A stretch of 31,592 bases of DNA from Clostridia bacterium (GTDB taxonomy: Bacteria > Bacillota > Clostridia > Oscillospirales > CAG-272): assembly GCA_017960705.1 (NCBI GenBank), contig JAGCYR010000173.1, positions 1 through 31,592 of the forward strand. Direction: 5' to 3'. The number at the start of each line of letters is the position of its first letter. Within the stretch, counting starts at the first letter, position 1. The notes below the pieces were generated by a model, which saw nothing but the letters and a program-made list of their open reading frames with translations, had not been told where the DNA came from and did not search any database. Positions 1-3,280 of the stretch are shown here, one piece after another. A program made the translations under genes and the position numbers.

Positions 1-10
1 CAGGGTTCCC

Positions 11-117
11 GCGCAACATATCGCGTTTTGCGGACTAGTCCGTAAAACATATCGCGCGAAACGCGTGCGTTTCGCATATCGCGTTGCGCCTCGCAACATC
101 TCGCGCGGCGAAGCCGC
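11..117. repeat. Array of constant 9-nt linkers (CATATCGCG x3, CATCTCGCG x1) alternating with distinct palindromic hairpins; probably truncated by window start
   Basis: Linkers at 17-25, 48-56, 75-83, 97-105. Spacers 26-47, 57-74, 84-96 and 106-116 are each inverted repeats, read directly from the sequence. Confidence 0.9.
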
Positions 118-121
118 CTTC

Positions 122-970
122 TTACTCTCTGAACTCCCGTAACAGCGACACGCGCTTACTTGAATACCGGTACGCCATCTCAAAGTCGCCGAGCTCGCGG
201 TAGCAGGTCTCGGTGTCCGAGTAGATACGGTAGAGGAAATACGGGGGCAGCTCGCCCGAACTCTTCTTTTCCTCCAAAGCGAGCAGGGTAGTGAGCGCCT
301 CGCGGTAGCGGCGGTTGGTGATCATCTCGCGCGCCTTGCGGTGGAGATTGATCGAATCGCGGTTGCACTCGATCCCGGTCTCGTCGGTCAGGTACAGATA
401 GTCGTTGTAGCCGATCGCCTTTTCCGCCAAAGCGAGGTATTCCTCGCGCCTGACCTCCCAGCGCGGACTTTCGGGAGATTTCGCGACGGCGCGGCAGAGC
501 TCGGCGCGGGCGAGGATCCAGTCGGTCGGGAGGACGGTCTTTTTCGCGTACTCCTTCGCCGCTTCGACGTATTCGGGGATCTTCTTCAGGTTTCCTTCGC
601 GCATCGACCGCTCGGCAAGACCGAGGGCGGCGGCGGAGGCGATGCACGCGACCTCGTCCGCGATCCCGTCCGGTGGCAGCTTGCCGATCAGGGTCATAAC
701 GTCCGCAAACCGTCCCGCCGCGTACGCTTCACGGAGATCCGGCAGCGCCGCCCCGACGGCGAACGCGGTAAAGTCGTCCTCCTCCGAGACGAGGTAGGCG
801 ACCGGGACCGAGAGGGCTTTCGCGATTGCGGAGAGCGAATCGAGAGAGGGAAGACAGTCGCCCCGCTCGATCCGGCAGATCAGGTTGCGCGTCACGGCGT
901 CCCCGGCGACCTCGCGCTGGGTCAGCCCGAGTTCCTTCCGCCGCAGGCGGATCTTCTCGCCGACCGTCAT
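122..970 (-). CDS. XRE-family HTH transcriptional regulator with helical, TPR-like C-terminal region (282 aa)
   Basis: Start MTVGEKIRLRRKELGLTQREVAG at 970 (ATGA overlap with upstream stop). Classic HTH_3 pattern (IERG..LPSLDSL..IAKAL). C-terminus is Ala/Leu/Tyr-rich and helical. The ORF-track 5' extension is not used. Confidence 0.85.
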   Translation of the reverse strand: MTVGEKIRLRRKELGLTQREVAGDAVTRNLICRIERGDCLPSLDSLSAIAKALSVPVAYLVSEEDDFTAFAVGAALPDLREAYAAGRFADVMTLIGKLPPDGIADEVACIASAAALGLAERSMREGNLKKIPEYVEAAKEYAKKTVLPTDWILARAELCRAVAKSPESPRWEVRREEYLALAEKAIGYNDYLYLTDETGIECNRDSINLHRKAREMITNRRYREALTTLLALEEKKSSGELPPYFLYRIYSDTETCYRELGDFEMAYRYSSKRVSLLREFRE

Positions 971-2236: not shown

Positions 2237-3280
2237 TCAGTCTTCGTCGTGTTTTACGTCGGAGAGGGGATTGCTCTCCATCGCCTGTTTCATCCCCTCG
2301 TCCGAGACGTGGGTGTAGATCTGCGTGGTGTTCAGCTGTTCGTGTCCGAGGATGTCTTTGAGTACCCGGATATCGACCTTTCCGGTCTGGTACATCAGGG
2401 TCGCAGCGGTGTGCCGGAGCTTGTGTACCGAGAGCCCGCGGTTCGAGAGCCCCGCCGCGTTCAGATAGCGGTAAACCATCCACTGCACCGTCTTGACCGA
2501 GATCCGCTGTACCCGGGAGGAGAGAAAGAGCGCGTCGGTGTTCTGCTTGCGCGGGTCCTCCTCCATCCGTTCGCGCAGATAGGAACGGAGGGCGGTGCGG
2601 CAGGCGTCGTTCAGGTAGATCATCCGCTGTTTCGCGCCCTTGCCGGTGACGCGGAGCGAGGTCAGTTCGGGGTCGATATCGGTGAGGTTGATCCCGACCA
2701 GTTCCGAAACGCGCATCCCGCAGTTCAGAAACAGCGTGATGATGGCGTAGTCTCGGACGCGGCTCTTGGATTCAAGGTCGTTTTCGACGGCGGCAAGCAG
2801 GCGGCGGCTCTCTTCAAGGTTCAGAAACTTCGGGAGGGTTGTGCGCTTCTTCGGCCCGTCGATATCGGCGGTCGGATCGTGGCTGATCAGGTGCTTTTTG
2901 GCGTACAGGTATTTGAAGAACGAACGGAGCGCCGAGAGCTTGCGCATCTTCGCCGCCGTCCCGTTCCCGCGTTGCTGGTCGACGTAGAACAGAAACCGAT
3001 AGATGGTCTCGGTCGTCACCCTCTCCATATCGGCGGCGGTGATCCCGCGGACGTCGATCTCCGAAAACTCCTTCGAGTTCGGATCGATCCTCTTTTCGGT
3101 CGCGATCAGATAGCGGAAAAACATCCGAAGATCGGACAGATATTCGCACACGGTCTTATCGCTTTTTCCCTCGATGACCGATTTCTGCGTCGCGTAGTCG
3201 ATCGCGACGGCGGGGAAGAGCTCGATCTCCGAGCCGTGAAGGGTAAGGACAGCCACGCTCTCGCTTCCTTTCTTTTTCAT
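2237..3280 (-). CDS. xerC: Tyrosine recombinase, XerC-like
   Basis: All catalytic motifs present: GMRVSEL (R), GKG (K), HKLRH (HxxR), LGH, TQIY (Y). An alternative GTG start at 3256 has an AAAGGA RBS and fits a TATAAT at 3289-3294 (minus strand). Confidence 0.88.
   Translation of the reverse strand: MKKKGSESVAVLTLHGSEIELFPAVAIDYATQKSVIEGKSDKTVCEYLSDLRMFFRYLIATEKRIDPNSKEFSEIDVRGITAADMERVTTETIYRFLFYVDQQRGNGTAAKMRKLSALRSFFKYLYAKKHLISHDPTADIDGPKKRTTLPKFLNLEESRRLLAAVENDLESKSRVRDYAIITLFLNCGMRVSELVGINLTDIDPELTSLRVTGKGAKQRMIYLNDACRTALRSYLRERMEEDPRKQNTDALFLSSRVQRISVKTVQWMVYRYLNAAGLSNRGLSVHKLRHTAATLMYQTGKVDIRVLKDILGHEQLNTTQIYTHVSDEGMKQAMESNPLSDVKHDED

Follow-up and report, generated by a model that had tools for sequence, protein, structure and literature searches.

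What is the short run of hairpins that opens this contig, in which a constant word alternates with palindromes that do not resemble one another? The window, by which we mean the whole 31,592-nt stretch analysed here (C66:1-31592), belongs to a Clostridia genome (G000) of 1.77 Mb in 257 contigs, 84% complete and with 60% GC, and its base 1 is base 1 of contig C66. We find that bases 5-117 are the truncated end of an array of a dispersed, fast-turnover intergenic repeat of gut and rumen Clostridia. What the array does, and in which nucleic acid it acts, can be answered with less confidence, and the evidence on these points is set out below.

Within bases 17-117, four linkers alternate with four dissimilar palindromes (Table 1). 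CATATCGCG is present in three exact copies (17-25, 48-56 and 75-83) and CATCTCGCG in one (97-105), and the spacers at 26-47, 57-74, 84-96 and 106-116, of 22, 18, 13 and 11 nt, are all self-complementary, with 10 bp including one G-T around a 2-nt centre in the first, 8 bp around GT in the second, 5 bp around CCT in the third and 4 bp around GAA in the last. A flanking G and C supply an extra closing pair to each stem, leaving linkers of 7 nt; GGCGAAGCC lies within 107-115. The preliminary description of this DNA had given the same linker positions, spacer lengths and palindromes, had proposed the closing G-C pair, which we see at all four hairpins, and had placed the array 4 nt from the stop codon of the neighbouring regulator, as is indeed the distance between the array's last C (117) and the stop codon at 122-124 on the minus strand.

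Table 1. Features at the start of the window (positions in nt; window position 1 is the contig start).
Feature	Position	Strand	Remark
Degenerate fifth unit, GTT...AAC, 3-bp stem	5-17	+	Adjoins contig start; array truncated
Linker 1, ATATCGC	18-24	+	With its closing C and G, equals the 9-nt repeat at 17-25
Hairpin 1, 11 pairs including G30-T43, CTAG centre	25-48	+	
Linker 2, ATATCGC	49-55	+	
Hairpin 2, 9 perfect pairs, GT centre	56-75	+	
Linker 3, ATATCGC	76-82	+	
Hairpin 3, 6 pairs, CCT loop	83-97	+	
Linker 4, variant ATCTCGC	98-104	+	
Hairpin 4, GCGGC-GAA-GCCGC	105-117	+	GNA triloop of the DNA mini-hairpin type
XRE-family HTH regulator	122-970	-	HTH_3, E 8e-9; outside the element
Tyrosine recombinase	2237-3280	-	Phage_integrase and SAM-like N-terminal domain

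Palindromy equal to that of the four spacers was found in same-length random genomic windows at frequencies of 1.7e-4, 9e-5, 1.8e-3 and 5.5e-3, giving a joint chance of ~1.5e-13. Thermodynamic folding was considered as support for the drawn structure and rejected: for the isolated strand read as RNA, the four-hairpin fold reaches -39.4 kcal/mol against a minimum free energy (MFE) of -44.9 on the plus strand (gap 5.5) and -38.8 against -52.1 on the minus strand (gap 13.3), so that on neither strand is the drawn "beads on a string" arrangement the one of lowest computed energy, and the whole-region folding z-scores are modest (-1.8 to -2.7) because the linker CGCG is able to pair elsewhere. A constant word alternating with variable inserts recalls CRISPR arrays, but the repeat here is 7-9 nt long and each "spacer" is palindromic, whereas CRISPR repeats measure ~23-47 nt and their spacers are not palindromic. 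The tyrosine recombinase ~2 kb from the array adjoins YunB and the fumarase subunit and is probably a housekeeping enzyme of the Xer type.

The array is one of many. CATATCGCG occurs 73 times in the genome against ~14 expected, and its clusters form arrays on at least nine contigs, including C31, C106, C191, C211, C214, C242, C26 and C17; the genome-wide pattern search that had been proposed as a check thus returned a multi-copy, clustered element. When arrays were sought irrespective of linker, as chains of short hairpins, at least 38 strict arrays emerged with five or six linker types, among them ATATCGC, (A)CATCAT(T), AATTCAC, ACATCAC/ACTTCAC and TCATAAC, of the general form A-N-W-T-C-R-Y; CATCAT, ATATCGC and AATTCAC are over-represented as gaps between hairpins. 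The palindromes are short, nearly perfect and GC-rich, are closed by G-C or T-A, and comprise 107 different spacers in 135 units, which bears out the earlier impression that structure is kept while stem sequence varies. The arrays are extragenic, occur in both orientations and run from 3 to ~30 units (~20-30 on C242 and C17), and paralogous arrays differ unit by unit. On C17 and C242, long arrays of a single orientation fill the space between a terminator and the TTGACA/TATAAT-like promoter of the next gene. At the head of both (C17:5050-6050 and C242:500-1450) stand a T/C-rich stretch, TCAC and a GCCGCG...CGCGGC hairpin, which gives them a polarity like that of a leader; blocks of differing linker type succeed one another, with whole-block duplications ~420 nt apart. 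One AATTCAC array (C194:1493-1565) lies inside an ORF called by a crude gene finder, which may mean that the array has inserted into a gene or that the call is wrong.

Arrays of this kind also explain why the assembly is fragmented: C66, C191 and C211 end within ATATCGC arrays and the array on C106 lies ~220 nt from the contig start, in line with the earlier suggestion that the window edge is a contig edge at which a multi-copy element broke the assembly. Leftward extension brought no other contig end of this genome that overlaps the window start, exact-protein look-ups of the regulator and the fumarase subunit made for the same purpose returned no match, and neither did an exact 36-nt search of JGI metagenome contigs. 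Relative to the upstream gene, 25 arrays are co-directional and 8 opposed, a count that we do not rely on because two-fold symmetric elements confound it. Array orientation had no robust link with GC skew or regional gene direction (11 of 38 on the G-rich strand, the loci being non-independent), and in this fragmented genome GC skew does not track gene direction either.

Is the repeat new? An Rfam search of window bases 1-600 on both strands at E<=10 gave no match, Gut-1 included. Sister arrays (C31 and C17 of this genome and those of two relatives) match RF01706, the Gut-1 model, over its full length at 27-40 bits, where the gathering threshold is 50 bits, and the genome as a whole holds 10 RF01706 matches at E<=0.001 (best E 1.4e-6). 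In the RF01706 consensus GUGAAAU links three hairpins, and the model takes the opposite strand from the one read in the preliminary description; the window shows the same layout, consecutive short hairpins with a constant 7-nt linker (18-117). Gut-1, too, is a series of short, GC-rich hairpins whose stems vary, and it comes from uncultured gut Clostridia. On the Gut-1 strand, which is also the sense strand of the regulator, the window reads GCGAUAU or GCGAGAU and not GUGAAAU (GCGAUAU differs in 2 of 7 letters), and one of its four loops is UUC; genome-wide the loops fit the Gut-1 CUUCG type, since UNC on the modelled strand is GNA on the other. The earlier remark that the array could not be assigned to a named family needs amending: Rfam leaves the window copy unscored at E<=10, but its architecture is that of Gut-1.

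Gut-1 was described from human-gut metagenomes with 43 examples, the sole statement on its occurrence (Weinberg et al. 2010, PMC2864571), and was rated a confident RNA from covariation (PMC2864571). We found no paper after 2010 that discusses its biology. Among 151 genomes of the order, 68 have RF01706 matches, 50 of them above the cut-off, spread over 44 of 97 genera and with up to 29 scored copies per genome. With matches dispersed and multi-copy across the order, Gut-1 is better seen as a dispersed repeat and the window array as its linker variant. As published, Gut-1 is a fixed three-hairpin "sRNA", whereas the arrays here range from 3 to ~30 units, turn over rapidly, come with several linker words in a single genome and include two-fold symmetric forms, which suggests that Gut-1 is one catalogued linker variant of a much larger hairpin-and-linker class.

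Does the array belong to either of its neighbours? Three close relatives (G211, G213 and G214) share the regulator and fumarase gene at 81-83% DNA identity, and the neighbouring 692-aa protein is 96-98% identical. G211 has rpsT, a bidirectional terminator and the regulator stop at this site, and the array is absent; G213 has the same arrangement plus a TCATAAC array of 3-4 hairpins; G214 carries a ATTACATA array of at least 14 units, inside which its contig ends, leaving the rpsT side unseen; and the genome studied here carries ATATCGC, again with the contig ending inside. The three arrays share one polarity on the window plus strand, which is the rpsT strand in G211 and G213. None of the 24 more distant members of the genus (regulator at most 43% identical) has an array beside the regulator. 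Among the genomes sampled, the genus is very heterogeneous: G014, for example, has 46% GC against 60% here, and the regulator's best match in the genus is 43% identical. At a second orthologous site (C214 of this genome, G214:C41 and G212:C69) the ATATCGC linkers align and the hairpins differ in number and sequence, and the orthologous arrays L059 and L062 show compensatory stem changes that fit RNA as well as DNA.

Because the same spacer in relatives holds no array or one with another linker, neither neighbour's transcript includes the array as a conserved part, and the array is not a dedicated or conserved regulator of the adjacent XRE gene. The preliminary description had considered the 3' UTR of a convergent gene; synteny supplies that neighbour, rpsT, yet in the relatives that keep the rpsT/regulator junction the rpsT terminator precedes the array position. 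Our own rpsT lies on C117, and past its terminator follow 395 nt with a small ORF (C117:3-227) on the regulator's strand, open at the contig edge. By synteny with the three relatives C117 should abut the left end of the window, so that at least ~400 nt would have been inserted between rpsT and the regulator, in which case the window array may be the first half of an element heading the inserted small gene.

A different gene family keeps far closer company with the arrays. Each of the three PF05635 (23S_rRNA_IVP, Avd-like) genes in this genome has a two-fold symmetric element ahead of it. The element runs from a long terminator-like hairpin through a GTGAAGT/GTGAATT-type half in Gut-1 orientation, a centre and a half with complementary linkers to the gene; in one instance it stands before a gene for a DUF6560 membrane protein instead. 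PF05635 is present in 36 of the 41 genomes of the genus. Since the strict array finder undercounts, having missed three PF05635 loci evident by eye, we scored these loci by a repeated word (one 6-letter word recurring at least five times within 330 nt) with the downstream side as control. Such a word is found upstream in 25 of 29 loci and downstream in 4 of 30, one of the four belonging to the start of the following cassette. Linker words vary among loci, and at least nine canonical Gut-1 matches are found on the strand of a PF05635 gene, 138-231 nt upstream of it. At six loci (L017, L049, L051, L053, L065 and L072) the element starts with the long terminator-like hairpin, which repeatedly has a TTTGTCT...GACAAA-type core; this hairpin recurs after tRNA genes and after the rumA-like gene and may thus be part of the element and not of the gene that precedes it.

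In the PF05635 tree, genes group according to linker type, with 18 label changes against 24.7 after shuffling; none of 200 shuffles gave so few. The genome's own three paralogues sit in separate clades: L018 and L019 group with same-linker genes of other species, and L017 stands beside a gene whose linker differs by one letter. Genes of the family are flanked by tRNA genes and by a conserved upstream gene that, read by eye, appears to be a rumA-like methyltransferase; the seven loci that share this upstream gene carry three linker types and three protein clades, which indicates that gene and array travel together and does not imply co-evolution. Across the 151 genomes, PF05635 is present in 59 and absent from 9 of those with Gut-1, and present in 13 and absent from 70 of those without (odds ratio 35, Fisher p = 3e-19, the genomes being non-independent and one array per PF05635 gene being linked by construction). 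Stratification by family gives a Mantel-Haenszel odds ratio of 25 (p = 6e-9, with genomes still non-independent). Array copies far exceed PF05635 genes, for example 28 to 3 and 26 to 2.

The simplest pairing of the two does not hold. In G014 (1.64 Mb) the four PF05635 loci use ATATCAC, ATTTCAT, TATTCAT and ATATCGC, and 9-10 of the 12 orphan arrays use TATATCAT, TCATAAC or CATCA, for which there is no cognate PF05635 locus, a result that rules against a strict model of one linker type per PF05635 gene. In the genome studied here we found no assembled PF05635 partner for ATATCGC. Two further loci of G014 deserve mention: at C10, ~172,000-172,200, upstream of the PF05635 gene at 171667-171975, about five TATTCAY-type 7-mers stand side by side without hairpins, and at C19:6682-6805 six perfect tandem 18-nt units (TTCCTCGGGAA plus TTTCTTC) are followed by a different seventh hairpin, probably an unrelated conventional tandem repeat caught by the hairpin-chain finder.

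Might gene and array nonetheless form one machine? The genes headed by arrays are PF05635 members of the four-helix-bundle kind, like Avd of the diversity-generating retroelements (DGRs); a reverse transcriptase (RVT_1, PF00078) was not found in the 84%-complete genome, which makes them non-DGR members with no assigned role, and with neither a reverse transcriptase nor a Y1 transposase found there the system is neither a DGR nor REP-RAYT. Avd is a pentamer. The nearest solved structure, 2RLD, has five chains of one sequence in its entry. Tentatively, arrays and non-DGR PF05635 proteins might constitute a single undescribed nucleoprotein system in which a ring-shaped protein reads single-stranded linkers, a proposal to which we give clearly less than an even chance. 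The 4-5 linkers per half-element would then possibly serve one protomer of a pentamer each, the PF05635 gene would be headed by its own array, and orphan arrays would be further sites of binding or propagation. We keep this proposal in play because of the upstream bias at PF05635 loci, the tree and the odds ratio; its strict one-protein-one-linker form is weakened by the G014 orphan arrays and the missing ATATCGC partner.

Is it as DNA or as RNA that the hairpins matter? We oriented all 135 units by their linker and counted loops and pairs. On the ATATCGC strand, GNA loops number 56 and TNC loops 4 (GAA 25, GCA 19, GGA 12, GTA 1), and TT, as C-TT-G, occurs 18 times against one AA. The GCGAAGC sequence that had been taken as a cue for plus-strand folding is thus representative of the genome, whereas the other cue, a G-T wobble, fails: among 781 stem pairs, 746 are Watson-Crick (95.5%), with 6 G.T, 10 A.C and 19 transversion mismatches. 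Wobble-type mismatches are not enriched on either strand and are no commoner than transversions, as expected if neither RNA strand is filtered. Stems so poor in wobble pairs are unlike the usual selected RNA helix and would suit either palindromes that are produced or maintained as DNA, or units of very recent origin. C-GNA-G and CTTG are classic, very stable DNA mini-loops (review PMC13037366), and it is C-GNA-G triloops of the d(GCGNAGC)/d(GCGNNAGC) mini-hairpin type that dominate one strand of the arrays. The mini-hairpin is a biophysical motif and not a family of genomic elements; its loops suggest a single-stranded DNA form.

We consider it about an even bet (roughly 0.5) that the repeat functions and propagates as DNA. 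The strand with ATATCGC and the GNA and CTTG loops would, when single-stranded or extruded, fold into a row of mini-hairpins that tucks away palindromes of variable length and leaves the constant linkers exposed as single-stranded words at even spacing. These would be read by a sequence-reading partner, for which the PF05635 family is the best candidate, and arrays would grow, shrink and reshuffle unit by unit through their identical linkers. We found no enzyme able to move or build units among the families searched (PF01797 and PF00078) in the 84%-complete genome.

The chief competitor is that the array works once transcribed, as a 3' UTR here and as a 5' UTR or small RNA elsewhere, showing GCGAUAU-type linkers to an RNA-binding protein that would make it a sponge, an autoregulatory operator or a stabiliser. 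Before the array we found no intrinsic terminator of the regulator, only weak consensus matches that lack a proper T tract; the array itself does not form an intrinsic-terminator stack, and in relatives the bidirectional rpsT terminator lies outside it, so the array is probably transcribed as the regulator's 3' UTR in Gut-1 orientation. At the three PF05635 loci of this genome the ribosome-binding site directly abuts the last linker, so that half probably lies in a 5' UTR. Gut-1 is, moreover, a curated RNA family with covariation, its canonical matches upstream of PF05635 lie on the gene's strand, and the minus strand of the window folds with z = -2.7. Against these points, many arrays sit between a terminator and a promoter, several PF05635 loci having their promoter after the arrays; a transcript through a two-fold symmetric element would carry both linker strands; G.U-type mismatches show no enrichment on either strand; the UNC triloops of the Gut-1 strand correspond to no known stable RNA loop, GNA and CTTG being on the other strand; and a close relative dispenses with the array at this very site. 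Four bovine-gut metatranscriptomes yielded sparse contigs of related strains and none over window bases 1-400, at very low depth. Loop and wobble statistics together with the mixed positions lead us to lean towards a DNA-level element over an RNA-level one, which we regard as unlikely.

Could the arrays instead do nothing at all? Template switching or slippage, favoured at a certain linker word, might create palindromes and keep them perfect, and these would spread by recombination and be tolerated in spacers, which would account for the rapid gain, loss and linker swap at one site, the unit-wise differences among paralogous arrays, near-perfect stems without wobble enrichment, and the hairpin-less linkers at the G014 PF05635 locus. 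We think a functionless by-product improbable, given linkers that stay identical while hairpins diverge at an orthologous site, a constant loop polarity with respect to the linker, the regular two-fold arrangement seen ahead of a single gene family at 25 of 29 loci, and the strong genome-level co-occurrence with that family. The earlier proposal of a REP/BIME-like substrate for an HUH (RAYT/IS200-like) single-strand nuclease draws on a real likeness to REP, BIME and REPIN elements: dispersed extragenic palindromes that form intergenic arrays and interrupt assemblies, a constant word of a few letters at the base of the hairpin, strand polarity, stable loops of the DNA type and arrays in both orientations. 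Yet Y1_Tnp (PF01797), the RAYT domain, was not found in the 84%-complete genome where control genomes were positive; REP hairpins are conserved in sequence within a genome, whereas here they are free to vary and the linker is conserved; and units within a half share one orientation while REP/BIME units alternate. That proposal is, in our view, very improbable. Integron attC sites, which lie at cassette boundaries, are recognised by structure rather than sequence, but the array units are far smaller. A chance pattern or assembly artefact, which the position at a contig end might evoke, is of negligible probability against a joint chance of ~1e-13 and the same architecture inside contigs of this and many independent assemblies.

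To our knowledge, Gut-1 has been listed in Rfam from 2010 onwards as an "sRNA" of three hairpins to which no biology has been assigned, and we know of no studied member of PF05635 other than the Avd subunit of diversity-generating retroelements. To this our analysis adds the turnover at orthologous sites, the loop and wobble statistics, the failed test of strict specificity and a quantitative association with PF05635. Hypervariable hairpin-and-linker arrays are present in about half of the order's sampled genomes, in up to dozens of copies each; they are gained, lost and swapped at single sites among close relatives, break metagenome assemblies, and form a repeat class that annotation pipelines and MAG assemblers currently ignore. 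Should arrays and PF05635 proteins prove to be a single nucleoprotein system, the Gut-1 motif and a large orphan branch of PF05635 would each gain their first function.
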